Origin: Candidatus Eiseniibacteriota bacterium
GTDB taxonomy: Bacteria; Eisenbacteria; RBG-16-71-46
Assembly (NCBI GenBank): GCA_963707915.1
Contig: OY970178.1
Coordinates: forward strand, 3,264,001 to 3,328,000
DNA length: 64,000 bases
Reading direction: 5' to 3'
Under the pieces are notes generated by a model. It made no database searches. It was not told where the DNA came from and saw only the letters and a list, made by a program, of their open reading frames with translations. Of the stretch, positions 13,755 to 53,206 are shown in pieces (the first letter of the stretch is position 1; each line of letters opens with the position of its first letter). The position numbers and the translations under genes are program-made.

Positions 13755-16099
<2,345 letters not shown>

Positions 16100-16100
<1 letters not shown>

Positions 16101-16342
16101 TGGATCCCGGGCGTCTCGCCGTGACCGTGCTGGGCCTGGGGCTGATCGTGGCCGTGAACCTGGGGTTCTTCGCCCGGCCGGGGACGCGGCGCGTCCCGGG
16201 GCGGCGCGGCCGCGCCGGCGTCAAGCCGCCCGGAGGTCCGGCCGATGATGGACCGGGGACCGGTAGCCGAACGGACCAGCCGTCCTTGACCCGTCCCGGA
16301 CACGCACCGCCGGCGCACCTGCCAACATCCAAGGAGCCATGA
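16100..16342 (+). CDS. Small membrane protein
   Basis: ATG overlaps the copA stop; MDPGRLAVTVLGLGLIVAVNLGFF hydrophobic helix; stop overlaps the next ATG. Confidence 0.5.
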
Positions 16343-16785
16343 ACCGCGCCACCGCCTTCCTGCGCCGCGCCCTGGGCGTGATCCTCGCGATCACACCGCT
16401 GCTCGCGGGCGCCGACCTCTGCACCGTCGGCGCGCTCACGGGCCGCGCGGACCTGGCGTGTGCGATGGAATCCGGCGGGCCCGCCTGCCGGACGGTGGTC
16501 GCGGCCACGCCGAAGTGCTCTCGTTGTGCGCCGGCTGCCCCGGTCCCGGAGACCCCGCGCTCGCAGGGTCCGACCTGCTGTGACCTGCGACCGCAGGGCA
16601 CGGCAGTGGCCGGGCAGCCCGTGCTCGACGCGTCGTCGTCGGCCGCGGTCGCAGTGGTTTCCCCCTTGCTGCCGGTCTCCGATCCGGCCGCGTCGTCGTC
16701 GGTGCGTCCCGACCCCGATGACGGCCGCGCTCCTCCGGGTGGCCCGCCGGACCGGATCTCTCCCCGGGCCCCTCCGCTCTCCTAG
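16339..16785 (+). CDS. Cys-rich exported protein with C-terminal RAPP motifs (DUF2946-like)
   Basis: AAGGAG RBS; signal peptide-like N-terminus; CSRC and CC; ends GRAPPGGPPDRISPRAPPLS. Confidence 0.65.
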   Translation: MNRATAFLRRALGVILAITPLLAGADLCTVGALTGRADLACAMESGGPACRTVVAATPKCSRCAPAAPVPETPRSQGPTCCDLRPQGTAVAGQPVLDASSSAAVAVVSPLLPVSDPAASSSVRPDPDDGRAPPGGPPDRISPRAPPLS

Positions 16786-16914
16786 TTCCCACGGCACCAG
16801 GTCCCGGCTTCCCCGGGACCTCGCCTGCGCGCATCATGCGCGCGGGAACCGATCGGCCCTCGCGTGCGCTGCAGGACGCAGCGGCACGCCGGACCAGGCG
16901 AGAGGAGCGACCCC

Positions 16915-18278
16915 ATGAGCCGAACCGCGGCGCTGTTCGCCGTGCTGCTCGTCATCACCGGCGCGCGGCCGGCCCCGGCGTTCGAACCCGAAGGCGTGCT
17001 GCCCACGGAGGCATCGGGCCCTCTGTCCGGGGCGCACGCCCTCGCGCCCGATAGCGTCGCGCGCCGGCCGGCGCCGGCCGGCGAGGACCCGGCCCCGCCG
17101 CCCGACGAGCTCGTCGCGCAGGCGCTCGAGCACGCCCCCGCCGTGGCGGCGCTCGCGGCGCGCGTCCAGCAGGCCCGGGAGATGGTCCGGCCCGCCGGGG
17201 CGCTTCCCAACCCGATGGTCGAGCTCATGATCCAGGACGTGGGCTTCCCCCGCTGGACCGTCGGCACGGAGGAGATGTCGATGGCCGGCCCCCAGCTCAC
17301 GCAGGGCATCCCATTCCCGGGCAAGCGCGGCGAGCGGCGCCGGGCGGCGAAGGCGGAACTCGCGGTGAAGGCGGACGAGCTGGAACTGCTCCGGCGCGAG
17401 GTGACGCGCGACATCCGGAGCCTCTACGCCCGGCTCTACGCGCTCGACCAGGAACGGCAGGCGCTCGCCTCCGGCCGGGAGCTGCTCGAGATGCTGGCCG
17501 CCACGGTGCGGGAGCGCTACGGCGTCGGGTTGGCCGAACAGGAAGCCGCGGTCAAGGCGCAGCTCGCGGTCTCGCGGCTGGAGGAACGCCAGGACGATCT
17601 CACCGCGGAGCGGGCGGGCCTGGCGGCCGCGGTGAACCGGCTGCTGGACCGGCCGGGTGACGCGGCCCTCGGGCGGGTCGCGTCGCTGCCCGAGCCGCAG
17701 TTCCCGGCGCCGCCCTGGGAGCCTGTCGTGCTGCAGAACTCCGCCGGGATCGCCGTGCGACGGGCTGCGGTCGAGGCCGCGGAGCGGAAGCTCAAGGTCG
17801 CCCGGATGGAGCTGAGGCCCGACCTCGTCGCCGGCGCGGGCGTCGGCTTCCGCGGCGGCAGGGACCCCGTCGCCACGTTCCGGCTGGGGGTGGAGCTGCC
17901 GCTGTGGGCGGCCGGGAACCAGCTCCCGATGATCCGTGCGGCCGGGCAGGAACTCGAGGCGGCGCGCCAGGACCTGCGCGAGGCCGAAGCCGGGGGCGGG
18001 CCGAGGCGGCCCGGCTGGAGGCGGACTGGCGCCGGGCGGGCAGCCAGGTGCCGCGCTACGCGCAGGCCATCGTGCCGCAGACCAGCCTGGCCCTCGACGC
18101 GGCGCGTTCCGGCTACCTGGCCGGGCGGGGCGATTTCTCGGCGGTCGTCGAGGACTTCAACCTGTGGCTCGAGGCCCGCACCGGGCTGGCCCGGCGCGAG
18201 GCCGAACGCTTCGCGACGTGGGCCGAACTGCAGACCATCATCGGCTCGAGCGGCGCCGCCGCCCGGCAGACGGAGTGA
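16915..18278 (+). CDS. TolC/CusC-family outer membrane efflux protein (one frameshift near 17995)
   Basis: GAGGAG RBS; LPNPMVEL, QGIPFPGK, VELPLW; C-terminus (YAQAIVPQ...SGYLAGRGDF) continues in the frame ending at 18278. Confidence 0.82.
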
Positions 18279-18288
18279 GGAGGAAACG

Positions 18289-19752
18289 ATGATCGACCTC
18301 AGAGGTGACGTCCGACGGTCGCTGCCGCTGCTGGTCCTCCTCGCGTGCGGCATGCTCGCGTTCGGGGCCCTCGTCGCCGGGTGCGGCCGGCCCGCCGCCA
18401 CCGGCCGGACCGCCGGCGGCCAGCGGCAGCAGTACCACTGCCCGATGCACCCGACCTACGTGTCCGACCGGCCGGGCGACTGCCCGATCTGCGGCATGAA
18501 GCTCGTGCCGATCGAGGCGAAGAAGCCGAACGGCGCCGGAGGTCCGCCCGCCGCGGCGGGCGCGACGACCGCTTCCGCCGGGCCGCGCAGGATCCTCCAC
18601 TACCGCAATCCGATGAACCCCGCCGTCACCTCGCCGGTGCCGATGAAGGACGAGATGGGCATGGACTACGTGCCGGTCACCTCGGACCAGGTGTCCGTGG
18701 CCGGCAGCGTGGAGGGCCATGCCTCGGTCGAGGTGAGTCCCGACGAGCTGAAGCTGGCGGGCCTTCAGAGCATTGTGGCCCGACGCGGGAGGCTGGCCCA
18801 CACCATCCGCACGGTCGGCGAGGTCAAGGCCGACGAGACGCGGATCAGCCAGGTGCACACCAAGATCTCCGGGTGGGTCGAGAAGCTGTTCGTCAGCTCC
18901 AGCGGGCAGGCGGTCCGCAGGGGCCAGCCGCTGCTGAGCATCTACTCGCCCGAACTGCTCGCGACCCAGCAGGAGTTCCTCCGGGCGCGCGAATCCGCCG
19001 CCCGGTTCACCGGGAGCGACCTGCCCGAGGTCCGCCGCGGTGGCGAGGAGCTGCTGGCGGCGGCCCGGCAGCGACTCGCGCTGTTCGACGTGCCGCAGAG
19101 CTTCGTCGAAACGCTGGAAAGCACGGGAAAGCCGCAACGCACCGTGACGCTCGACGCCCCGGCATCGGGGTTCGTCACCGGGAAGGAAGTCTTTGCGGGA
19201 ACGCAGATCGAGCCGGGAATGACGCTCTTCACGGTTACCGACCTGTCGAAGGTCTGGATCGAAGCCGAGGTCTACGAGTACGAGGCTCCGCTGGTGCGGA
19301 CCGGGCAGCAGGCCCGCGTGACCCTCGCCTACGACCCGGCGCGCGTCTACGTGGGGCGGGTCAGCTACATCTACCCGTACCTGAACCCGGACACCCGCAC
19401 GCTGCGGATCCGCTTCGAGTTCGACAATCCCGGCCTGGCGCTGAAGCCCGGGATGTACGCCAACGTCGAGCTCGACGCTCAGGCGGTCGCAGGCATCCTG
19501 ATCCCCGACGCGTCGATCCTGGACACCGGCCCACGGCAGATCGTGTACGTCAAGACCGGTGAGGGGCGCTACGAGCCGCGCCAGGTGAAGGTCGGTATCC
19601 GGAGCGACGGCCAGGCCCAGATCCTCTCGGGGGTGAAGGAAGGCGACGAGGTCGTGGATCGGGCCAACTTCCTGCTCGACTCGGAGTCCCGCCTGCGCGC
19701 CGCGATCGGCAAGGCGCCGGGGGCCCACACCGCGGGCGCGGGCGCGCGATGA
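18289..19752 (+). CDS. cusB: CusB-like efflux RND periplasmic adaptor with heavy-metal binding domains
   Basis: GAGGAGG RBS; YHCPMHP...CPICGMKL and YRNPM...KDEMGMDY motifs; IYSPEL, LKPGMY, FLLDSES. Confidence 0.88.
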   Translation: MIDLRGDVRRSLPLLVLLACGMLAFGALVAGCGRPAATGRTAGGQRQQYHCPMHPTYVSDRPGDCPICGMKLVPIEAKKPNGAGGPPAAAGATTASAGPRRILHYRNPMNPAVTSPVPMKDEMGMDYVPVTSDQVSVAGSVEGHASVEVSPDELKLAGLQSIVARRGRLAHTIRTVGEVKADETRISQVHTKISGWVEKLFVSSSGQAVRRGQPLLSIYSPELLATQQEFLRARESAARFTGSDLPEVRRGGEELLAAARQRLALFDVPQSFVETLESTGKPQRTVTLDAPASGFVTGKEVFAGTQIEPGMTLFTVTDLSKVWIEAEVYEYEAPLVRTGQQARVTLAYDPARVYVGRVSYIYPYLNPDTRTLRIRFEFDNPGLALKPGMYANVELDAQAVAGILIPDASILDTGPRQIVYVKTGEGRYEPRQVKVGIRSDGQAQILSGVKEGDEVVDRANFLLDSESRLRAAIGKAPGAHTAGAGAR

Positions 19753-22700
19753 TCCGCAAGATCATCGACTTCTCGGCTAAGAACCGGGTCCTCGTCCTGC
19801 TGGGCGTCGGGGTGCTCTGCGCCTACGCCTTCTACATCCTGCACCAGATCCGGCTCGACGCGCTGCCCGACCTCTCCGACACCCAGGTCATCGTCTACTC
19901 GCGCTGGGACCGGTCCCCCGACATCATGGAGGATCAGGTCACCTATCCCATCGTCTCGGCGCTGCTGGGAGCGCCCCGCGTCAAGGCGGTCCGCGGCTTC
20001 TCGGACTTCGGCTATTCCTTCGTCTACGTGATCTTCCAGGACGGCACCGATCTCTACTGGGCGCGCTCGCGGGTGCTGGAATACCTGTCCAAGATCCAGT
20101 CCGACCTGCCCGACGACGTGCGCACCGAGCTGGGTCCCGACGCCACCGGCGTGGGCTGGGTCTTCCAGTACGCCTTGGTCGACCGCTCGGGCACGCACTC
20201 GCTCGATCAGCTCCGCTCGTACCAGGACTGGACGCTCCGCTACGCACTCCAGTCGGTGCCCGGAGTGGCCGAGGTGGCCTCGATCGGCGGCTACGTCAAG
20301 CAGTACCAGATCACGGTGGACCCCAACCGGCTCGCCGCGTACGACCTGTCCATCTCCACCGTGATCGATGCCGTCCGCAACTCCAACAACGAGGTCGGCG
20401 GCCGGCTCATCGAGTGGAGCGGCACGGAGTACATGGTCCGCGGCCGCGGCTACTCGAAGAGTCTCGAGGACTTCGGCAGCATCGTGGTGAAGACCGGCGC
20501 GGGCGGCGTGCCGGTGCTCCTGAAGGACGTGGCGCGGGTCGGCCTGGGCCCCGAGATCCGTCGCGGCGTGTCCGACCTCGACGGGAAGGGCGATGCGGTG
20601 GGCGGCATCGTGATCATGCGCCATGGTGAGAACGCCCTGAACGTGATCCAGCGCGTCAAGGAGAAGCTCGGCGACCTCGGGCCGTCCCTGCCCGCAGGGG
20701 TGGAGTTCGTCACCACCTACGACCGGGCGGATCTCATCACCCGGGCGATCGAGACGCTCAAGCACGAGCTGACCATCGAGATGATCATCGTCTCGCTGAT
20801 CATCCTGCTCTTCCTCTGGCACATCCCCTCGGCCGTCGTGCCGATCCTGACCATCCCGATCTCGGTGCTCCTGGCCTTCATCCCGCTCTTCTACTTCGGC
20901 GTCACCGTCAACATCATGTCGCTGGCCGGCATCGCCATCTCGATCGGCGTGCTGGTGGACGGGGCGATCGTCGAGGTGGAGAACGCCTACAACAAGCTCC
21001 ATCTCTGGGACGCGGGGGGCAGGAAGGGCGACTTCCACGCGGTCCGCCTCGAGGCGCTCAAGGAGGTGGGGCCCTCGGTCTTCTTCTCGCTGCTGGTCGT
21101 GGCGGTGGCGTTCCTGCCCATCTTCGCCCTGGTGGACCAGGAAGGCCGGCTGTTCAAGCCGCTGGCCTACTCCAAGAACCTGGCCATGGCGCTGGCGGCG
21201 TTCCTCGCCATCACGCTCGACCCGGCCATGCGGATGATGTTCACCCGCATGGACCCCTTCCGCTTCAAGCCCCGCTTCCTGGCGAAGCTCGCCAGCCACG
21301 CCCTGGTCGGCACCTACTACTCCGAGGAGAAGCACCCCATCAGCCGCGCCATCTTCAGGGTGTACGACCCGGCCTGCCGCTTCGTGCTGAAGCGGCCGAA
21401 GACGATCATCCTGGCGGCGGCCGCCATCGTGGCGTTGAGCATCCCGGCCTACTTCAAGCTGGGCTCGGAGTTCATGCCCCCGCTGAACGAGGGGACGATC
21501 CTCTACATGCCGACGACCCTGCCCGGCATCTCGGTGGCGGAGGCCCAGGCGCTCCTGCAGACCCAGGACCAGGTCCTCAAGTCGTTCCCCGAGGTCGAGC
21601 GGGTGTTCGGCAAGGCGGGGCGCGCCGAGACCTCCACCGATCCCGCGCCGTTCTCGATGATGGAGACCACGGTGATCCTCAAGCCGCCGCAGGAGTGGCG
21701 CGGCAAGAAGCGCTGGTACTCTTCGTGGGTGCCGGGCTTCCTCAAGCCGGTTCTCCGCCCGATCTGGCCCGACCGGATCTCGTGGGACGAGCTGGTCGCG
21801 GAGATGGACGCCAGGCTCAAGATCCCCGGCGTGACCAACGCGTGGACCATGCCGATCAAGGCCCGCACCGACATGCTGACGACCGGGGTCCGCACCCCGA
21901 TCGGGATCAAGATCTTCGGCTCGGATCTCAAGGAGATCGAGAAGCTGGGCGCCCAGCTCGAGGGCCTGATGCGGCAGGTGCCGGGCACCCGGAGCGTCTA
22001 CGCCGAGCGGGTGACCGGCGGCTACTTCCTCGACTTCGAACCCCGGCGGGACCAGCTCGCCCGCTACGGGCTCACCATCGCGGACGTCCAGACGGTGCTG
22101 ATGTCGGCCGTGGGCGGCGAGAACGTGACCACCACCATCGAGGGCCGTGAACGCTACCCGGTCAACGTGCGCTACCCCCGGGAGCTCCGCGACAACGTGG
22201 ACCGTCTGCGAAGGGTCCTGGTGAAGACCCCCGCGGGGCCGCAGGTGCCGCTGGCCCAGCTCGCCGACATCCAGCTGGTCACCGGGCCGGCGATGATCCG
22301 GGACGAGAACGGCTTCATGGCCGGCTACGTCTACGTCGACATGACCGGCGGGGACATCGGCGGCTACGTCGAGAAGGCCAAGAAGCTGGTGCGGGAGAAG
22401 CTGACCCTGCCGCCCGGCTACCGTGCTGCAATGGAGCGGCCAGTACGAGAACATGATCCGGGTGAGCCAGCGGCTCAAGGTCGTGGTGCCCATCACGCTG
22501 GTGCTGATCTTCGTGCTGCTGTTTGCCAACACCCGCTCGTGCGTTCAAGTCGATGGTGGTGATGCTGGCCGTGCCGTTCTCCGCCGTCGGCGCCATCTGG
22601 CTCTTCCACTTCCTGGGCTACAACGTGTCCATCGCGGCATGGGTGGGGATGATCGCGCTGCTGGGCCTGGACGCGGAGACCGGCGTCTTCATGCTGCTCT

Positions 22701-23005
22701 TCCTGGACCTCTCCTACGACGAGGCCCGCAAGAAGGGGCTGCTGCGGACGCTGGGAGAGTTGGACGAGGCCATCCTGCACGGAGCGGTCAAGCGGGCGCG
22801 ACCCAAGATGATGACGGTCTGCGCCGCCTTCATGGGCCTGCTCCCGATCATGTGGTCGACTTCGGCCGGCGCGGACGTCATGAAACGGATCGCCGCGCCG
22901 ATGATCGGCGGACTGGTCACCTCGTTCCTGCTGGAACTGCTGGTCTACCCGGCCATCTACAAGCTCTGGAAGCTGAAGACCGACCTGAAGGAGCTCGAAT
23001 CGTGA
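19749..23005 (+). CDS. cusA: CusA/CzcA-family heavy metal RND permease (frameshifts near 22423 and 22540)
   Basis: DALPDLSDTQVI, GPDATGVGW, NIMSLAGIAI, EFMPPLNEG, WTMPIK; the end continues as WSGQYENM and then RPKMMT...KRIAAPMIGG in shifted frames. Confidence 0.9.
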
Positions 23006-23064
23006 CCCCCGGCGCTCCGCCGGCCGCGCGGACACGCCCACTTCACCCAGGTGCCGCAGAGGAG

Positions 23065-23409
23065 ATGAAGATGAAGCTGAAGATGCTGGTGACGGTCGTG
23101 GTGGTGATGCTGGCGGTGGCGTTCGCGAGCGCCCTGGCGGGCAGCGAGCAACGCGTGAGGCTCTCGGTGACGAAGAACGGCTTCGAGCCTGCGGTGGTGA
23201 CGGTGCGGGCCGGGCAACCGGTGGTGCTGCTGGTCACCCGCAAGACCGACCGCACCTGCGCGACCGAGCTGGTGCTGAAGGCCTACGACATCAACGAGAA
23301 GCTGCCGCTCAACAAGACCGTGTCCATCCGCTTCACCCCCAGGCAGAGCGGGACGCTCCAGTACGCCTGCGGGATGGACATGTACAAGGGGAAGATCGTG
23401 GTGAAGTGA
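23065..23409 (+). CDS. Cupredoxin-domain protein
   Basis: GAGGAG RBS; signal peptide; GFEPAVV, TCATE, YACGMDMYKGKIVV. Confidence 0.88.
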   Translation: MKMKLKMLVTVVVVMLAVAFASALAGSEQRVRLSVTKNGFEPAVVTVRAGQPVVLLVTRKTDRTCATELVLKAYDINEKLPLNKTVSIRFTPRQSGTLQYACGMDMYKGKIVVK

Positions 23410-23439: not shown

Positions 23440-23600
23440 CCCGAAAAGCCGCCACCCCGCTCGCCTCACGGTGAGCGGGGTGAAATGTTCTGGGAGGGGC
23501 ATCTGGAGTCTCGGGGGCCGCACCCAAGGGTCTTCAGACACTCCCTCCCAAACCTGTGCGTTCTGATGCGCGGGGAGCGGGAAGGATTCAGGGGATCCCC
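23440..23600 (-). ncRNA. Candidate 6S-like structured RNA
   Basis: On the minus strand: closing stem, central bubble and long inner stem (GGGAGGG.GUGUCUG pairing with CAGAUGCCCCUCCC), then a hairpin followed by CUUUUC; folded by eye only. Confidence 0.4.
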
Positions 23601-23800
23601 GGGAGGGCCGGAGCCGTCGCGGCCCGGCGACTCCCGGTCCGCCGTCCGGGCTCGCGCGTCCGTCGGCGCTCGTGGTTCGGACGGGCCGCCGGTGGCCGAG
23701 CCCGCTGGCCCCGGCGCAGCGCCGGGAGTATCGTCGCGCCGTTGCCGGCTTGCCAGCGTGCGCTGGCCCGAGACGGACGCGTCATCCAAGGAAGGATCCC

Positions 23801-24838
23801 ATGAGCGTTCTGCGTCGCGATCCCACCACGAATCGCTGGGTGATCTTCGGGGACCCGCCACCCGCGGCCCGGGTCCCCGGAGACAGCTGTCCATTCTGCT
23901 CCGGGCACGAGTCCCGGACGCCTCCCGAGATCGTCGCCTGGGGCCCGCCGCAGCGCCAGCCGAACGCCCCGGGCTGGCAGGTCCGGGTGGTGCCCAACGC
24001 GCGCCCGCTGCTGCGCATCGAGAGCGCGCTCGAACGCCATGCCGACCTCATCTACGACACGACGTCGGGCACCGGCGCGCACGAGATCGTGATCGAGACG
24101 CCGGAGCACCGGCGCAGCCTCTCCGCGCTGCCGAGGGCCCAGGTCGCGCTGGTGCTGAAGGCCTGGGCGGAGCGCATCCGCGACCTCAAGAAGGATCCGC
24201 GGTTCCGCTCCATCTTCGTCTTCAAGAACCAGGGGATGCTGGCCGGGGCGTGGATGCCCGACCATGCGCACTCGCAGGTCATGGGCCTGCCGGTGACGCC
24301 CAAGGCGCTCAAGGAGATCCTCGACGTCGCGCGCGCGCACTACCGGGACAAGGAGCGCTGCGTCTTCTGCGACATCCTGCGGGAGGAGCTGGAGTACGGC
24401 CGGCGCCTGGTGAAGGTCACCGAGCACTTCGTCGCGCTGGCGCCCTACGCCTCGCGCTACCCCTACGAGTACTGGATCCTGCCGCGGGAGCACTCCGCGG
24501 ACTTCGAGGCCACCGGGCCCGCGCTGCTCGAGGACCTGGCCGGCGTACTGCAGGCGACGCTGGCGCGGCTCGAGGACATCCTGCCCGATCCGGCCTACAA
24601 CCTGTTCCTCTACAGCAGCCCGAACCGTGATGCGCGCAAGGGGTACTGGACCACGCTGGCCCAGGACTTCCACTGGCACATCGCGGTGATGCCGCGGCTG
24701 GTGCAGACGGCGGGCTTCGAAGTGGGCAGCGGCCTGTACGCGAACCCGGTGCTGCCCGAGGACGCGGCGCGCATGCTGCGCCCGGAGGTGCCCGGGGCGG
24801 TGGACGACGGGAGCCCGGTCGCTACGCCGGAGTCCTGA
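23801..24838 (+). CDS. galT: Galactose-1-phosphate uridylyltransferase-like (GalT/HIT) protein
   Basis: LRRDPTTNRWVI, CPFC, GAHEIVIETP, FKNQG, HAHSQ, CVFCD, HWHI, AGFEVGSG. Confidence 0.8.
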   Translation: MSVLRRDPTTNRWVIFGDPPPAARVPGDSCPFCSGHESRTPPEIVAWGPPQRQPNAPGWQVRVVPNARPLLRIESALERHADLIYDTTSGTGAHEIVIETPEHRRSLSALPRAQVALVLKAWAERIRDLKKDPRFRSIFVFKNQGMLAGAWMPDHAHSQVMGLPVTPKALKEILDVARAHYRDKERCVFCDILREELEYGRRLVKVTEHFVALAPYASRYPYEYWILPREHSADFEATGPALLEDLAGVLQATLARLEDILPDPAYNLFLYSSPNRDARKGYWTTLAQDFHWHIAVMPRLVQTAGFEVGSGLYANPVLPEDAARMLRPEVPGAVDDGSPVATPES

Positions 24839-25010
24839 CGATCATCGGCCGGCCTGATCTCGCCGGATGGAGAGCAGGTGGACCCCGATCGGGGACCCAT
24901 CGAGCCGGGAGTCGCGCGGGCGAGCGTGTGTGCACTCAGCCGTCCACGCGGCTACCGGCTCGGCCGGTCCAGCCTGGCGCGGCGACTCCCCGGCTCCGGA
25001 GCGCCCGGGA

Positions 25011-25871
25011 CTACTCCAGGCCCAGATCCTCCATGTCGCCCTCGTCGAAGCCGAGCAGGTGCGCCAGCTCGTGCTGCACCGTGGTGCGCACCTCGGTCGC
25101 CAGCTCCTCGCGGTCCGCGCAGGAGCGGAGCAGGTTGCGACGGAAGAGGTAGATGGCCTCGGGGACGCCGGGCAGGTCGACGTGGCTGCGCTCGAGCAGG
25201 CTGCGTCCGACGAAGAGCCCGAGCAGGTCGGGCGGCAGGGGCGGATCCTCGGCGGTGAGGATCTCCCGCCAGGGCAGGTCCACGACCAGGACCGGCGTGT
25301 CGAGCGCCTCGGCGAAACTCCGGTGCATGTGTTCCGGCACCTCCGCCAGCTTCTCCTTGAAGAACCTCTCGACCAGCGCCTGGCTCTCCTCCACCAGCGC
25401 CTGGAAGTCCTCGTCCGTGATCTCGAAGGGCTGCGCGAAGGCCACCGGGTCGATGGCCCGGGCCTCGGCCGCGTGCTTCCGCGCGTGCTCCGGCTGGTCG
25501 AGGTACTCGTAGACGCGGGACAGCAGATCGTGCGCCTCGGCCAGGTCGGGGGTCACGGCCACGGCGCGCAGGGCGTCGTCGCGCGCCTGCTCGAAGCGCA
25601 CCAGTTCGAAACGGGCGACGGCGCGCAGGTAGAAGAGCAGCGCGGGGTCGGCCGAGCGCTCGGCTCCCAGCAGGGTCTCGAGCGCCCGGGCGGGCTCGCC
25701 TTCGTCGAGGTAGACGGCGGCCTCCACGATGCGGACGTCGGGATGCCCGGGGCGCGCCCGCAGGAGCGTGTCCAAGGTCGCACGGGCCTTCTCCACCTCG
25801 CCCTCGTCGAGCAGGTCCCAGATCCGGCTGACCTCGGCCCACTCGGTCTCTGACAGCGTGTCGTAGCTCAT
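25011..25871 (-). CDS. TPR-containing zincin-like metallopeptidase
   Basis: N-terminal TPR-like helices; C-terminal LLGLFVG...IYLFRRN...TTVQHELAHLLG (HExxH). Confidence 0.85.
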   Translation of the reverse strand: MSYDTLSETEWAEVSRIWDLLDEGEVEKARATLDTLLRARPGHPDVRIVEAAVYLDEGEPARALETLLGAERSADPALLFYLRAVARFELVRFEQARDDALRAVAVTPDLAEAHDLLSRVYEYLDQPEHARKHAAEARAIDPVAFAQPFEITDEDFQALVEESQALVERFFKEKLAEVPEHMHRSFAEALDTPVLVVDLPWREILTAEDPPLPPDLLGLFVGRSLLERSHVDLPGVPEAIYLFRRNLLRSCADREELATEVRTTVQHELAHLLGFDEGDMEDLGLE

Positions 25872-26063
25872 CGCAGGCGACCTCCGTCCCCGCAATCTAG
25901 CGCCCCGCGACCGGGTGCGCCACCCGCTCGCGCGCGCGTCCCGCGCGGTCCGCTCCGCGCCCGCGCGGGGTCGCGCCGATCGCCGTTCGCGCGCCGACGC
26001 GTCAACGGGATGTCAATCATTCCGGCCGCGGCACCGCGACCGGGCGGGAAACGGGCCATATCC

Positions 26064-26093
26064 TTGACGCCCGCGCGCGGCGAACCGTAGACT
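26064..26093 (+). promoter_or_regulatory. Putative sigma70 promoter of the selenoprotein gene
   Basis: TTGACG-N18-TAGACT about 70 nt upstream of ATG 26161. Confidence 0.55.
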
Positions 26094-26160
26094 CAAGTCG
26101 CATCTTCCGCACGCCGTTACCGTGCTTCGAACCATCCTCGTTCTCGGGAGAGCCTGTCGC

Positions 26161-27585
26161 ATGAAGACCCTGCTGTCGCGGTTCGTCGCCACCGCGTTCC
26201 TCGCGGCCGTCGCCTGGGTGCTGCTGGCCGGTGCCAGCGCTCCGCGGACGACCCCGCTCGAGCCGGACAAGCTCGTCATCCTCTCCACCAACGACGTCAA
26301 GGGCAAGACCGACCCCTGTGGCTGACACACCCCCAAGGGGGGACTCGCCCGGCGGGCGGGTTTTGTCGACAGCATCAAGGTGAGCTACGGCCAGGTCGTG
26401 CTGGTGGACGGCGGCGGCTTCTTTCCCGAGGACGACCTGCACCAGGACGTCGCCTGGTTCCTGATGGACGCGATGAAGGTGCTGGGTGTCGACGCGGTGG
26501 GGACGAGCGAGAGGGAGCTGCGCTTCGGGGCGAGCTTCCTGAAGGCGCAGATCAAGCGCACCCAGCTGCCGATGGTGTGCGCCAACCTCTACCTGTCGAA
26601 GACCTCGAAGCTGCTGCTGCCGCCCTACGTGCTCAAGCAGGTGGGCACGGTCAAGGTCGGCATCTTCGGGCTCATGAGCAACGCCCCCGGCCTGGACCTG
26701 GGCCCGGCCCGGGACTCGCTGCGCGTCGAGGAGCCCTCGGCCGCGGCCAAGCGCACGGTCGCGGAGTTGCGCAAGAAGGGCGCGACGGTGGTGGTGCTGC
26801 TTTCCCAGCTCGGCAAGGTCGAAGGCGAGGACCTGGTGACGGCGGTGGACGGCATCGACGCGGTGATCCTCGGTCACGGCACGCCGCTGCTCCAGAAGGG
26901 GCGCCTGATCAAGGCCACGGTGGCGTGCTACGGCGGCGAACAGGGCCAGTACATCGGGCGCACGCTGCTGACGCTCGATGCGAAGCGGAAGATGACCACC
27001 GGCGACAACGAGACCTTCATCCTGGGGCCCGAGATCGCGGAGAAGAAGGAGATCGCCGCGCTGGTGAAGGGGTTCAACGACAGCTTCAACGACAAGCTGC
27101 AGAAGCTGCAGAAGGAGAAGGCCGCGAGGGACGCCGAGAAGGCGGTGCAGGGTTCGCCCGAGCACTACCTCGGGGGCGAGATCTGCGCGCGCTGCCATCC
27201 GGCGGAGGCGGCGCAGTGGAAGACGACCAAGCACGCTCAGGCCTGGGAGACGCTGGTGGCGGCGAAGCAGGACACCGTCGCCAGCTGCATCGGCTGCCAC
27301 GCGGTCGGTTTCCGACAGGCCGGTGGGTTCAGGGACCCAGTGAGCACCGGGAACCTGAAGGGCGTCCAGTGCGAGAGCTGTCACGGCATGGGCTCCACGC
27401 ACGAAGCGTTCAGCGCGACGCCGCGCAGGGTCACCGAGCTGACCTGCCGGATCTGCCACACCAAGGAAGTGAGCCCGGGGTTCGACTTCGCCCTGTACCA
27501 GGCCCACGTGGACCACAAGGGCACGGGAACGAAGCAGCCTCTGCCCGGGTCTCCGATGAGGAAGTACCTGCCGACCGGCAAGTAG
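26161..27585 (+). CDS. Exported UshA-like selenoprotein fused to a tetraheme cytochrome c (Sec at UGA 26323-26325)
   Basis: ORFs 26122..26325 and 26380..27585 are in the same frame; read-through gives DPCG-U-HTPKGGLARRAG...VLVDGG; signal peptide; CARCH, CIGCH, CESCH, CRICH. Confidence 0.85.
26326..26367 (+). promoter_or_regulatory. Candidate bacterial SECIS element
   Basis: Stem GGACUCGCCC (26341-50) pairs with GGGCGGGUUU (26354-63); G-starting apical loop GGC begins 25 nt after the UGA. Confidence 0.7.
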
Positions 27586-27897
27586 CGCCGCAAGGCCTGA
27601 AGAACGTCGCGGAGCGGGTCTCCCGAGAGGCCCGCTCCGCAGCCGTTTCCAGCTCCGCCCTTCGGCCGGGAGGCTCCGCAAGGCCGCGCGCCCGGTGGTC
27701 CCACGCCGCTCCTGCGCGGTCTCGGTCCGCTCGATCGCGGAAGGAGAGCCCCGATTCCCGCCCCCCGGAACGGACTCAAGTGTCCAGCCAGGACCGTCGC
27801 CGGTCCCCGCGACCCCGGCAGGGACCCGGTCGTGGTTTGTAAGATGTTCGATATCAACGAGTTGAATATGTCGGACAAGGTTCTGTCGCGAAGAAGG

Positions 27898-27926
27898 TTG
27901 ACAAGCCCGTGGCCTCGCTCTAGGTT
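27898..27926 (+). promoter_or_regulatory. Sigma70 promoter
   Basis: TTGACA-N17-TAGGTT preceded by an AT-richer tract. Confidence 0.7.
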
Positions 27927-28142
27927 CTCGTGGACTTCTGCTAGGCGCACCTGCCCCGACATGGAAGTGCATCGCGCCTTCCGGACTGACGACACGCGAT
28001 TCACGCGCAGGGACGCCGCGGACTTCGAATCGTACTTTCGACGTGGCAGGTCCTGAGAAAGCGTTCTTGAGAAAATGATGGGCCGCTGCCGGACTTCTCA
28101 TGTTCCGGCGCGGCGAGACCGAGAGGAGGTGAAATGGAAAGG

Positions 28143-28325
28143 ATGCGGAAGAATCTCGCTCTGGCGATGGTCGCCCTCTTGGCGCTGACCCTCGCGCTCG
28201 CCGCGGTCGGTTGCGCTCAGAAGAAGGCCGAGGAAGTGACCCCGGCTCCGGTGGCTGACACCACCAGCATGGTTCAGGACACGACGACGATGGCGCCGGT
28301 CGACACGACGGCTGCCCAGCAGTAA
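28143..28325 (+). CDS. Small lipoprotein with DTT repeats
   Basis: GAGGAGG RBS; hydrophobic signal ending AAVG-C; mature part AQKKAEEVTPAPVADTTSMVQDTTTMAPVDTTAAQQ; alternative start 28134. Confidence 0.8.
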   Translation: MRKNLALAMVALLALTLALAAVGCAQKKAEEVTPAPVADTTSMVQDTTTMAPVDTTAAQQ

Positions 28326-28352
28326 CCAGGATCGTCTCGCTGTTTGCCTGGC

Positions 28353-28384
28353 GGGAGGGGGGGGTAGCGATATCCTCCCCTCCC
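28353..28384 (+). terminator. Hairpin downstream of the lipoprotein gene
   Basis: GGGAGGGGGGGGTA-GCGA-TATCCTCCCCTCCC, GNRA loop. Confidence 0.55.
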
Positions 28385-28566
28385 TGTAGTTTCCGGGGGA
28401 AACCCGGAGCCCGGGCTCCGATCCCTCGCCCGGCCCGCACCTCGGTCCGACGCCAACCCCTCCCGGGCGAGCCGGGAACTCCGCGACCTACCCCCATTTC
28501 GGCCGCTCCGGCGCAACCCGGCCGCGGTCCGTTGCGTAGACGTGGGCAGACGAGGAGGGTCCGTCC

Positions 28567-29646
28567 GTGAAAGCCCAACACCTGATGCTCGCCGTCGCCG
28601 CCCTGGCGCTCCTGCCAGGCACCCTGTTGGCCGACAGGACCACTGCCCTGCGAGAGCAGAGCCAGCAGGTGGTCGAGGCCCGGGGCCTCACCGGCCTGAG
28701 GGTCGAGAACCCCCGCGGCCTGGTCCAGGTGAGCCCGAGCCGGGACGGGCGCATCCACCTGACGGCGCTCAAGCTGGCGAGCAGCCGTGCGTCCGAGCGG
28801 GCCGAGGACTTCGCCCGCGGGACCCGCGTGGAGACCTCGACCGAGTCGGGCCGTTTCGTGGTGCGCGTTCGCTACCCGCAACGGCGGACGCTCCACGCCA
28901 GCCTCTCGCAGCTCTTCAAGGGTGAGTTCGACCTGCCCCGCATCGAGGTGCGGCTGTCCCTCGAGGTGCCGCCCAGCCTGCCGGTCGACCTGGAGACCTC
29001 CAGCGGCGACCTGGAGACCGGCGGCCTGACGGGGACGCAGTCGCTGCAGACCACGAGCGGCGACATCGAGGTGCACGCGGCGGCAGCGTTCGTCTCGATC
29101 ATCACCACCAGCGGGAACATCATGGCCTCCGGGCTGGGGCGGGCCACGGTCCACAGCGTGAGCGGCGACATCACCCTGGACGCCGCGCGCGGTCCGCTCG
29201 ACGTCCGCACGACCAGCGGGGACATCAGCCTGAGCGGCGTCACCGACAGCCTGCGCCTGTCCAGCGTGAGCGGGGACATCGGGTTGGACCGGGCGCCCCG
29301 CGGCCTGGACGCCGGCACCACCAGCGGACGCATCGTCGTGGACGGTCTCGCCGGCGGAGCGGTGCGCCTGCGCTCCACCTCGGGCGAGGTGAGCTTCGGT
29401 CTCGACCGCAACCTGCGCCGCGCCGACGTGAGCACGGTATCGGGCGGGATCACCGCCCGGCTGGCCGACGGGCTCGGCTGCGACCTGACGCTCAAGAGCA
29501 CGAGTGGCACGCTCGACAGTTCCGTGCCCCTGAAGATCCGCACCGTCTCCCGCAGCGAGATGTCGGGCACGGTGTCCGGCGGGGGCCCGCCGGTGATCCT
29601 GCACAGCCTGTCGGGCGACATCGCCGTGACCGGCAGAGGGAGATGA
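28567..29646 (+). CDS. DUF4097-family beta-strand repeat protein
   Basis: Signal peptide; repeated TTSGDI/SVSGDI units. Confidence 0.88.
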   Translation: MKAQHLMLAVAALALLPGTLLADRTTALREQSQQVVEARGLTGLRVENPRGLVQVSPSRDGRIHLTALKLASSRASERAEDFARGTRVETSTESGRFVVRVRYPQRRTLHASLSQLFKGEFDLPRIEVRLSLEVPPSLPVDLETSSGDLETGGLTGTQSLQTTSGDIEVHAAAAFVSIITTSGNIMASGLGRATVHSVSGDITLDAARGPLDVRTTSGDISLSGVTDSLRLSSVSGDIGLDRAPRGLDAGTTSGRIVVDGLAGGAVRLRSTSGEVSFGLDRNLRRADVSTVSGGITARLADGLGCDLTLKSTSGTLDSSVPLKIRTVSRSEMSGTVSGGGPPVILHSLSGDIAVTGRGR

Positions 29647-33359: not shown

Positions 33360-34732
33360 TGGTTCAGACCGGGCACACTGGTAACAGATCAGACCGGGGA
33401 CATGGGTTACAGCCCGCGGGCATCATGGGTGGTTCGAGGAGGACCACACGATGCCCTGGGCGAGGACCGACTGGATGTCTGAACGAGTGAAGTTCATTGC
33501 CGCCTACCTGCAGGCGGAGGCCAGCTTCTCCGACTTGTGCCACGACTTCGGGGTCAGCCGGAAGACGGGGTACAAGTGGGTCCGTCGTTATGAGGCCGAC
33601 GGGGTCGCGGCCCTCGAGGAGATCTCACGCGCGCCGCACTCTCATCCCAACGCCGTCGCCGCCGACCTCGTGCAGGCGATCGTCGCGATCCGACGTCGCC
33701 ATCCGCGTTGGGGACCACGCAAGGTGCGGGTGGTGCTGAAGCGGGAACGGCCGCCGGTCGCGCTCCCGGCGGCCAGCACGATCGGCGACATCCTGAGGCG
33801 CAGCGGACTGGTTCGCCCGCGCCGGCGAGTCCGGCGCAGCTCACCGTACGGGGACCGGCTGCGGCAGTACGACGCACCCAACGCCGTCTGGTGTGCCGAC
33901 TTCAAGGGCCACTTCCCGCTGGGTCGCCGGGGTGAACGCTGTCATCCGCTGACCATCAGCGATGGATACAGTCGCCTGCTCCTTCGCTGCCGCGCCCTGC
34001 GTCGTCCGCTCACTCAGCATGTCCGGCGCGTCTTCGAGTCCGCTTTCACCGAATACGGCTTGCCGAGGGCGATCCGCACCGATAACGGGCCGCCGTTCTC
34101 GACGCTCGCCCCGGGCGGACTGTCGCGTCTCTCGGTCTGGTGGATCCGACTCGGGATCCGTCCCGAACGCATCATGCCAGGTCGTCCCGAACAGAACGGG
34201 CGCCACGAGCGCATGCATCGCACCTTGAAAGCCGAGACCGCCAGACCGCCGCGCTCGAGCTTCAGCGCCCAGCAACGCGCGTTCGATCGCTTCCAGACGG
34301 AGTACAACCAGGAGCGGCCGCACGAGGCGCTCGGCCAGGAGGTGCCGGCCGCGCTTTACCGCCCATCGCTTCGCTCGTACCCGCGCGAGCTCCCCGAACC
34401 AGAGTACCCGCGACACTTCGAGACCCGGGTGGCCTATCCCAACGGCGTGATCACCTTCGGCACCACGCAGTGGTACGTGAGCAACTGCCTCGTCGGCGAA
34501 CGGGTCGGACTCGAGCCCTGCGACGATGGCCGGTGGCGTGTCCACTTCGGCTGGGTGCCGATCGGACTGCTAGATCTCAAGCAGGCCACCGACCGCGGAC
34601 CCCGCCACTTTGGGCGGCTCGAACCCATCGTTGATCCTGCCTTGAGCAGACGTCGTCGCCGCCGTTATGGAAGCTAGAATGTGTTACCCATGTGCCCGGT
34701 CTGTCCTGTCACCCATGTCCCCGGTTGCTTCA
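33360..34732 (+). mobile_element. IS481-family insertion sequence
   Basis: Transposase flanked by doubled subterminal motifs (ACCGGG(C/G)ACATGGGT(A/G/T)ACA-like) in inverted orientation at 33368-33411 and 34682-34725; ends TG...CA; the left end could instead be TGT at 33344. Confidence 0.85.
33451..34677 (+). CDS. IS481-family DDE transposase
   Basis: MPW start, HTH GVSRKTGYKW, WCADFKG, IRTDNGPPF, PEQNGRHERMHRTLK, YNQERPHEAL. Confidence 0.95.
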   Translation: MPWARTDWMSERVKFIAAYLQAEASFSDLCHDFGVSRKTGYKWVRRYEADGVAALEEISRAPHSHPNAVAADLVQAIVAIRRRHPRWGPRKVRVVLKRERPPVALPAASTIGDILRRSGLVRPRRRVRRSSPYGDRLRQYDAPNAVWCADFKGHFPLGRRGERCHPLTISDGYSRLLLRCRALRRPLTQHVRRVFESAFTEYGLPRAIRTDNGPPFSTLAPGGLSRLSVWWIRLGIRPERIMPGRPEQNGRHERMHRTLKAETARPPRSSFSAQQRAFDRFQTEYNQERPHEALGQEVPAALYRPSLRSYPRELPEPEYPRHFETRVAYPNGVITFGTTQWYVSNCLVGERVGLEPCDDGRWRVHFGWVPIGLLDLKQATDRGPRHFGRLEPIVDPALSRRRRRRYGS

Positions 34733-52921: not shown

Positions 52922-53007
52922 GGAGGGATGGCCGAGTGGTTGAAGGCGGCGGTCTTGAAAACCGCTGAGCGAAAGCTCCGTGGGTTCGAATCCTACTCCC
53001 TCCGCCA
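52922..53007 (+). tRNA. tRNA-Ser(TGA)
   Basis: GGAGGGA acceptor, anticodon loop CTTGAAA, long variable arm, GTTCGAATC, CCA end. Confidence 0.96.
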
Positions 53008-53014
53008 GTTGTCT

Positions 53015-53106
53015 GGAGAGGTGGCCGAGTGGCTGAAGGCAGCCGCCTGCTAAGCGGTTGACTGGGTAAAACCGGTCCGGAGGTTCGAATCCTCTCCTCT
53101 CCGCCA
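53015..53106 (+). tRNA. tRNA-Ser(GCT)
   Basis: GGAGAGG acceptor, loop CTGCTAA, long variable arm, CCA end. Confidence 0.96.
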
Positions 53107-53129
53107 GTAACGGGTACAGCAGCAAGCGT

Positions 53130-53206
53130 GCGCCCTTAGCTCAATTGGATAGAGCATCTGACTACGGATCAGAAGGTTGGGGGTTCAAATCCTCCAGGGC
53201 GCGCCA
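53130..53206 (+). tRNA. tRNA-Arg(ACG)
   Basis: GCGCCCT acceptor, loop CTACGGA, GTTCAAATC, CCA end. Confidence 0.96.

Follow-up and report, generated by a model that had tools for sequence, protein, structure and literature searches.

A probable UshA-like selenoprotein with a C-terminal tetraheme domain, cut short by annotation, in a Candidatus Eiseniibacteriota genome

Two open reading frames (ORFs) that are called separately in the genome of a Candidatus Eiseniibacteriota bacterium (GenBank assembly GCA_963707915.1, contig OY970178.1) lie in one frame on either side of a single TGA, which raises the question whether this codon terminates a short peptide or is read as selenocysteine (Sec) within a longer protein, and what such a protein might do. 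The analysis covered a stretch of 64,000 nucleotides of the forward strand (the window, positions 3,264,001 to 3,328,000 of the contig; coordinates below count from its first letter). Overall, the best explanation, and one that we consider highly probable, is a single gene at 26161-27585 that encodes an exported selenoprotein of the already catalogued UshA-like CxU family.

The in-frame TGA and its reading

At the junction of the two ORFs the codons read …GAC CCC TGT GGC TGA CAC ACC CCC AAG GGG GGA…, with the TGA at 26323-26325. The ORFs (26122..26325, 67 aa, and 26380..27585, 401 aa) both share the frame of an ATG at 26161, and with the TGA taken as U the translation of 26161-27585 yields 474 residues comprising a hydrophobic N-terminus, the motif STNDVKGKTDPCG-U-HTPKGGLARR (U55) and four CxxCH motifs. 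This is exactly the protein that the original prediction had described on the basis of the shared frame, together with the claim that routine annotation would miss its N-terminus. That claim proved correct as well: the protein called for this contig (3,623,634 bp) in the database is the 401-aa product (P0002), and among the 120 best homologues listed 106 have a length of 312-423 aa and 14 are full length (470-486 aa), so that the N-terminus is missed both here and in relatives. The practical gain is therefore a correction of annotation, as this gene and more than 100 public homologues lack, as called, the initial ~70-90 codons (73 in this case); the shortened calls drop the signal peptide together with the selenocysteine site, and their products are named "hypothetical" or "multiheme cytochrome." The elements of the reading frame are as follows.

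26161..27585, + strand: full coding sequence of the predicted UshA-like tetraheme selenoprotein, 474 aa, stop TAG at 27583-27585; orthologues align from residue 1 to ~470 across the TGA
26161..26241, + strand: predicted Sec-type (export) signal peptide, ~aa 1-25/27, ...LLAGA/SA; hydrophobic helix 2-24 in the structural model, cleavage site inferred from sequence
26317..26319, + strand: codon TGT of Cys53 in the C-G-U motif; Cys in 52/55 rows of the diverse alignment
26323..26325, + strand: putative selenocysteine codon TGA (U55); of 96 aligned sites, 55 have TGA and 41 TGC/TGT; 14/14 full-length database homologues have Cys

The argument is carried by what occupies position 55 in other copies of the gene. 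Cys stands there in each of the 14 full-length sequences among the 120 best homologues listed, and in a more diverse alignment of 55 rows, which includes 41 added representatives and extends down to ~25% identity, position 53 is Cys in 52 rows, position 55 is likewise Cys in 52, and position 54 is Gly in 50. When related genomes were searched with stops read through, 61 of 61 gave a match, and the best matches from the same taxonomic family nearly all align from residue 1 to ~470 with one TGA inside. The frame PCG-x-H.PKGG, found in 32 loci of related genomes, carries TGA 25 times and TGC or TGT 12 times. A further search, run with the close-clade alignment and hence covering the close clade, recovered 96 motif sites in 75 of 77 species-representative loci, with 55 TGA, 33 TGC, 8 TGT and no other codon; these loci, nearly all from metagenome-assembled genomes (MAGs) titled Candidatus Eisenbacteria, overlap in genomes with the set of 32. 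Position 55 is thus filled by TGA or a Cys codon throughout the close clade, as had been anticipated, and by these counts the recurrence of an in-frame TGA in 55 related genes is far beyond chance.

The apparatus for Sec insertion, which had been named beforehand as selA, selB, selC and selD, is complete in the genome (one contig, 94.8% complete): selB (345 bits), selA (544 bits), selD (368 bits) and a tRNA-Sec (71 bits, anticodon tca) all score above curated cut-offs. The selD gene, located outside the window (G000:C1:534747-536011; L010, L014), has an in-frame TGA of its own, its product being by all appearances a SelD selenoprotein, and the tRNA-Sec(UCA) follows ~250 nt past it. Elsewhere TGA serves as an ordinary stop, terminating seven of ten Pfam-supported neighbouring genes and occurring in frame inside none of them, which excludes a general reassignment of the codon.

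Downstream of the TGA the RNA can fold into a hairpin resembling a bacterial selenocysteine insertion sequence (SECIS), with a smaller hairpin in front of it.

26344..26360, + strand: SECIS-like hairpin CUCGCCC-GGC-GGGCGGG, stem 26344-26350, loop GGC 26351-26353, stem 26354-26360; starts 18 nt after the UGA
26330..26341, + strand: small, weak hairpin CCCC-CAAG-GGGG ahead of the SECIS-like one, perhaps belonging to the base of the SECIS; cells paired 87% (Sec genes) and 81% (Cys genes)

While the upstream hairpin does not discriminate Sec genes from Cys genes, the 7-bp helix of the downstream one does. All seven pairs are present in 100% of cells across 25 Sec genes, of which 16 have C-G and 9 have G-C at pair 33-45, a compensatory exchange between two third codon positions that leaves both amino acids unchanged (CTC/CTG for Leu, GCG/GCC for Ala). 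Covariation in the hairpin scores 0.128, a value that none of 500 shuffles reached (shuffled alignments: 0.065), and sliding the partner strand by 1-3 columns brings pairing to 33-63%; the same columns are 59.5% paired in 12 Cys paralogues that code for the same GGL(A/S)RR peptide. Over the 96-site sample the helix is complete in 54 of 55 TGA genes but in none of 41 Cys genes, and the sole unpaired TGA gene is consistent with being a frameshifted copy in the relative G004 (see below). Conserved and placed 18 nt behind the UGA, this hairpin is in keeping with a bacterial SECIS and would be a putative target of SelB; the very clean contrast between Sec and Cys genes would then provide a well-defined SECIS for this lineage. 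Since the TGA aligns with Cys, the hairpin is specific to Sec genes, the Sec machinery is complete and TGA is otherwise an ordinary stop, we are close to certain that the TGA at 26323-26325 encodes selenocysteine. None of the observations named beforehand as refuting was encountered.

Were the TGA a true stop, the locus would encode two products, a peptide of 54 aa and a cytochrome of 401 aa that begins at GTG 26380, or else be a pseudogene. Gene callers do give the 401-aa ORF here and, of the 120 best homologues listed, shorten 106, and the orthologue in G004, the closest near-complete relative, is frameshifted just after the TGA (L032/L062/L083; G004:C4 ~1197074-1198321). However, export is needed for the attachment of c-type hemes, so a 401-aa product devoid of a signal peptide could not receive them, and the retention of the 54 upstream codons, the frame and the TGA in 55 genes, the Cys at this site in 41 paralogues and a hairpin confined to Sec genes likewise speak against a stop. 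The shift in G004 consists of the loss of one base in a G-run right after the TGA (…AAGGGGGG-CTC…), which is typical of homopolymer assembly errors and probably represents one, rather than a pseudogene. Termination at this codon therefore appears very improbable. A general reassignment of TGA (to Trp or Gly, NCBI tables 4 and 25) or a sequencing error is effectively refuted by the use of TGA as a stop in the neighbouring genes, by the aligned residue, which in the close clade is Cys and never Trp or Gly, and by conservation of the TGA over 55 independent assemblies.

Domain architecture and family membership

Two domains joined by a helix can be distinguished in the 474-aa protein.

26266..27045, + strand: N-domain resembling UshA/5'-nucleotidases, aa 36-295, its dimetal site dismantled (profile alignment, model, Foldseek)
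27046..27135, + strand: long helix linking the domains, aa 296-325, equivalent to the inter-domain helix of 5'-nucleotidases (model, Foldseek)
27151..27525, + strand: cytochrome c554-like tetraheme domain, aa 331-455 (PF13435; 1bvb)
27184..27198, + strand: heme motif 1, C342-A-R-C-H346, invariant in 55/55
27286..27300, + strand: heme motif 2, C376-I-G-C-H380, invariant in 55/55
27370..27384, + strand: heme motif 3, C404-E-S-C-H408, invariant in 55/55
27445..27459, + strand: heme motif 4, C429-R-I-C-H433, invariant in 55/55

A confident AlphaFold2 model built on the 55-row alignment (predicted local distance difference test, pLDDT, 91.3; predicted template modelling score, pTM, 0.85) retrieved 5'-nucleotidases as top Foldseek matches (3ivd, 2z1a, CD73, UshA; E ~1e-22, TM ~0.5) over ~310 columns that correspond to the N-domain plus the linker helix 296-325. 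The model and these matches point to the N-domain fold of 5'-nucleotidases, in agreement with the metallophosphoesterase-like fold that had been predicted. Pfam gave no match of the protein to Metallophos and none to the C-terminal substrate-binding domain of 5'-nucleotidases, aa 331-455 being occupied by the tetraheme domain instead. Mapping of the metal ligands by profile alignment to the 5'-nucleotidase of T. thermophilus (2z1a) gave the following correspondences.

DxH motif: D45-V-K47
Bridging Asp of DAGD: G86, invariant in 14 close homologues, Asp in 25/55 rows of the wider alignment
GNHE: E117-R118
His of LSHLG: Q216
GGHSH: H239-G-T241, the first His being H239, replaced by Arg in the majority of close relatives

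All that is left of the dimetal ligands is D45 and, in this particular copy, H239, and the earlier statement that the usual ligands are altered is borne out by G86, E117-R118 and Q216 in their places. The loop behind the first β-strand, the usual place of the DxH ligands, carries the C-G-U motif, and the polar residues conserved to at least 70% in the N-domain are only C53, C55, R64, D83 and D233 (55-row alignment). Elsewhere in the genome, an open frame of 1227 aa (L024/L026, G000:C1:1979539-1982262) contains two 5'-nucleotidase-type domains with intact GNHE/GNHD, indicating that the loss of ligands is specific to the UshA-like selenoprotein family.

The C-terminal domain matches PF13435 with 53.9 bits (gathering threshold 20.8) and aligns to 1bvb with E 5.9e-17, and with E 8.6e-11 when the domain alone is used. 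Four CxxCH motifs are found in all 54 full-length Sec forms, and genes for cytochrome c maturation (CcmF/CcsA-type) are present in the genome. Further conserved positions of the domain are W353, E405, H358 (55/55), H414 (54/55) and H452 (47/55), with no conserved Met; three additional His for four hemes would leave one heme without a conserved sixth ligand. Cytochrome c554 itself has one five-coordinate heme. A second c554-like sequence, outside the window, forms the C-terminus of a 387-aa ORF with three CxxCH (L025, G000:C1:2606053-2609481), which adjoins a 484-aa ORF with 14 CxxCH.

With U read as C, the protein matches the NCBIfam model NF041198, "UshA-like (seleno)protein" (UshA_like_PCGU), with E 6e-81 and 272.5 bits. 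Profile positions 7-272 match the N-domain and positions 344-518 the cytochrome half (127 bits, C1:3290983-3291489), so the two-domain architecture already lies within the curated family. The protein also fits the definition of the COG0737 UshA-like CxU group, with homology to 5'-nucleotidases and a CxU motif that has Cys homologues. This group was listed as "COG0737, UshA-like, CxU" with 76 Sec sequences in the selenoproteome of an ocean metagenome (Zhang and Gladyshev, 2008; PMC2398784) and reappears in tables of two later reviews (PMC9312934; PMC13188914, the latter citing NF041198). The view that UshA-like proteins with CxC or CxU before GGxxRR occur as selenoproteins is therefore confirmed, whereas the novelty that the original prediction implied for the fusion with hemes does not hold, since NF041198 spans both domains and the family figures in selenoprotein surveys. 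The passages of these surveys that concern the family give its motif and accession and there mention no hemes and assign no function (PMC2398784; PMC9312934; PMC13188914), and our literature search for a fusion of selenocysteine or a metallophosphoesterase with a multiheme cytochrome found no paper. At E <= 1e-30 the family comprises 586 representative clusters; the relatives of the present clade in the genome collection are almost all titled Candidatus Eisenbacteria MAGs. Both the selenoprotein nature of the product and its assignment to this family can, on the sequence comparisons, be regarded as very nearly assured.

Some observations nevertheless weigh against this reading. The score of 272.5 bits is 2.5 below the equivalog cut-off of NF041198 (275). 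True members of the family (P0165, P0230, P0240, P0271, of which the first three also have four CxxCH) reach 342-372 bits in one stretch, and the close Cys homologues of the clade fall on both sides of the line (239.7 to 287.1 bits). Compared with the true members this clade lacks ~70 profile positions (273-343, a helical insert in P0165, P0230 and P0240), and this deletion accounts for the shortfall. As to the hairpin, an Rfam scan of 26250-26450 (E <= 10) returned seven sub-threshold chance matches and no SECIS family, and the minimum free energy of the 90-nt segment 26311-26400 has a z of only -1.8, so that the lone sequence does not prove a structure. Moreover, the hairpin overlaps the codons of the conserved GGLARRA motif, which means that part of its conservation is at the protein level; it is the contrast between Sec and Cys genes and the synonymous covariation that speak for RNA structure. 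The gene is monocistronic and has no informative neighbour. Finally, none of the public sequencing runs searched for this stretch holds the genome (the best shares 0.18 of sampled words); in three runs, including an RNA library, relatives have contigs across the site, and none of the 40 differences shown (of 146) falls at 26323-26325, which is weak support and comes from other organisms. Taken as a whole, the sequence evidence places this unannotated gene in a selenoprotein family that has been catalogued before, although in formal terms it misses the equivalog line by 2.5 bits, and the locus itself is not new.

A possible redox role of the C-G-U motif

What, then, might the protein do? Its signal peptide would direct it to the periplasm, where the hemes would be attached. 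Among the N-domain residues that might be catalytic, only Cys53 and Sec55 appear to be conserved almost universally; together they could act as a two-electron selenenylsulfide/selenol-thiol couple within the loop over the former metal site. This couple would exchange electrons, in either direction, with the four one-electron hemes, and the protein would thus connect the periplasmic electron-transfer chain with a two-electron substrate (a thiol, sulfur, selenium or the like). By the logic of conservation we lean towards this thiol/selenol-heme mechanism with modest confidence. The original prediction of a periplasmic redox enzyme, and not a hydrolase, with the C-G-U site wired to a heme chain is plausible.

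Twelve longer homologues bear on this proposal: six carry a DsbA/GILT-like domain and five a DUF1573 Ig-like domain (three of these with a CGC of their own), fusions that hint at thiol chemistry. Most of the fused DsbA-like parts lack a CxxC (four of the six; P0182 and P0265 each have a single non-heme one), and the fusions consequently lend no firm support to a link with the Dsb system. No partner was identified in the genome itself, which gave no match to DsbA (DSBA), DsbB, VKOR, Thioredoxin_4 or DUF1573. Among the 61 relatives, DsbB was found in none and VKOR in 7, while the UshA-like family was found in all. These numbers leave room for a disulfide-generating role of the family. Such an idea can be taken further, to a strained Cys-Gly-Sec selenenylsulfide that lies beside, or ligates, the one heme devoid of a conserved distal His; the CGU/CGC tetraheme proteins would then represent an undescribed kind of periplasmic catalyst that might generate disulfides or oxidise sulfur compounds, deliver the electrons directly to a heme chain and supply the disulfide-generating activity of this bacterial class. 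We consider this rather improbable.

Alternatively, the C-G-U motif might be a metal-binding site that oxidises or reduces a metal ion, e.g., Cu(I)/Cu(II), in the handling of copper in the envelope, where the hemes would serve as electron sink. Cys/Sec pairs are good binders of soft metals, as is established chemistry, and a copper/heavy-metal cluster is located 3-12 kb upstream (13755-23409) with a CopA-like P-type ATPase with an HMA domain, an AcrB/CusA-like pump of a Cus-type efflux system and a gene for a cupredoxin-domain protein. A copA and a cupredoxin gene are also found within ~4 kb of the orthologue in four of 12 loci examined (L066, L067, L070 and L072). Yet a GalT-like gene (23672-24838, +) and, on the opposite strand, a gene with TPR and Zincin_1 domains (25011-25895, -), both unrelated, lie in between, the copper synteny was seen in loci of a single bacterial family and may be inherited, and the N-domain offers only two conserved potential ligands. 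A metal site thus seems unlikely. The heavy-metal cluster also encodes, as a curiosity in its own right, a 962-aa protein that unites an outer-membrane efflux protein (OEP) with a CusB/HlyD membrane-fusion protein containing an HMBD domain, an unusual arrangement in one polypeptide.

Another possibility is that Sec55 or Cys53 lies beside, or ligates, the heme without a conserved distal His and that this forms a catalytic heme of the His/Sec(Cys) type acting on sulfur compounds, for which TsdA and SoxA offer a comparison. The four hemes face only three conserved extra His (H358, H414, H452) and no conserved Met, the domain aligns to a cytochrome with one five-coordinate heme, the pTM of the model suggests a fixed arrangement of the two domains, and there is a distant relation to SoxB (TIGR04486, 68 bits). 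The likeness to SoxB is, however, generic to the 5'-nucleotidase superfamily, and sox, tsd or dsr genes were not noticed among its immediate neighbours; on balance we judge a catalytic heme of this kind doubtful. Whichever chemistry is carried out, the family is large, is found in all 61 relatives searched, and has a Cys/Sec pair as its only conserved pair joined with four hemes.

Genomic context, paralogues and related systems

Three putative signals flank the coding sequence.

26064..26093, + strand: match to a sigma-70-like promoter, TTGACG-18 nt-TAGACT, lying 68 nt ahead of the ATG; consensus match only
26146..26150, + strand: Shine-Dalgarno-like GGGAG, 10 nt before the ATG; seen in the sequence
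27610..27639, + strand: perfect GC-rich inverted repeat with a 9-bp outer stem, CGGAGCGGG/CCCGCTCCG, 25 nt past the stop; seen in the sequence

The promoter-like site that had been proposed for the gene is indeed the sole consensus match in 25700-28000, with no match in 50 shuffles, but it is a pattern match and not evidence of function. The inverted repeat, a possible candidate for a terminator without a T-run, was not picked up by a terminator scan that depends on T-runs. An antisense ORF of 1195 aa (26017-29604, minus strand) is of low complexity and was rejected as an artefact of the G+C content of 71.5%. Likewise discarded as neighbouring genes were the plus-strand ORFs at 23485-24630 and 24867-25853, whose low-complexity translations are G+C artefacts; the synteny of the latter ORF in relatives is due to the zincin gene on the other strand.

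Downstream, a conserved region of ~1 kb with a small lipoprotein-like ORF is followed by DUF4097, bactofilin-like and VTT genes and by an IS481-type transposase. The segment 27852-28566 is 83% identical to G004 and partly conserved in three other relatives; the ORF within it (28134-28325, 63 aa) has a lipoprotein-like signal (…LAAVGC…), and an AT-richer patch extends over ~27832-28056. The transposase gene of the IS481 family (rve, HTH_32 and LZ_Tnp_IS481 domains) is located at 33451-34677, and a tRNA cluster, Ser(TGA), Ser(GCT), Arg(ACG), at 52922-53206. Gene order is kept in relatives of the same taxonomic family, which may reflect simple inheritance.

Many relatives carry, after the Sec gene, one or two paralogues: a full-length Cys form, a short heme-less CGC form, or both (e.g., L053, G033:C419:7250-11400; L056, G012:C29; L049, G029:C11; L040, G027:C379). 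The present genome has the Sec form only, and tblastn detected no remnants of tandem paralogues in the window. A FastTree phylogeny of 95 copies requires at least 10 changes between the Sec and Cys labels, compared with a mean of 31 when labels are shuffled. Several Cys copies group as sisters with the Sec gene beside them, and the deepest clades consist entirely of Cys copies, although the tree is midpoint-rooted and the direction of change is not established by it. Such recurrent pairs of Sec and Cys paralogues represent natural controls for biochemistry.

Compared with known systems, the protein shares with 5'-nucleotidases, UshA and CD73 (2z1a, 1ush, 4h1s, 3ivd) the fold of the N-domain, the long inter-domain helix and the GG.ARR and ANL motifs, and differs from them in that the nucleoside-binding C-domain is replaced by a heme domain and the dimetal set is incomplete. 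It resembles cytochrome c554 of Nitrosomonas (PF13435, 1bvb) in having four hemes, the first three CxxCH aligning in order and spacing, but the cytochrome is here the C-terminal domain of a larger, enzyme-like protein instead of a free carrier, and there is no context of hydroxylamine oxidation. Two further relatives with the same superfamily fold are matched weakly, namely the periplasmic sulfur enzyme SoxB, a thiosulfohydrolase (TIGR04486, 68 bits vs. a cut-off of 550), and "UshA-like (seleno)protein family 2" (NF049981, 32 bits vs. a cut-off of 140), which also comprises selenoproteins but has a profile of 262 positions and a CxxU motif, unlike the CxU found here. The closest correspondence is with the NF041198 family, with which the protein has in common the PCG-U/C motif before GG.ARR, the UshA-like N-domain with a degenerate metal site, the alternation of Sec and Cys, the C-terminal tetraheme region (profile 344-518) and predicted export.

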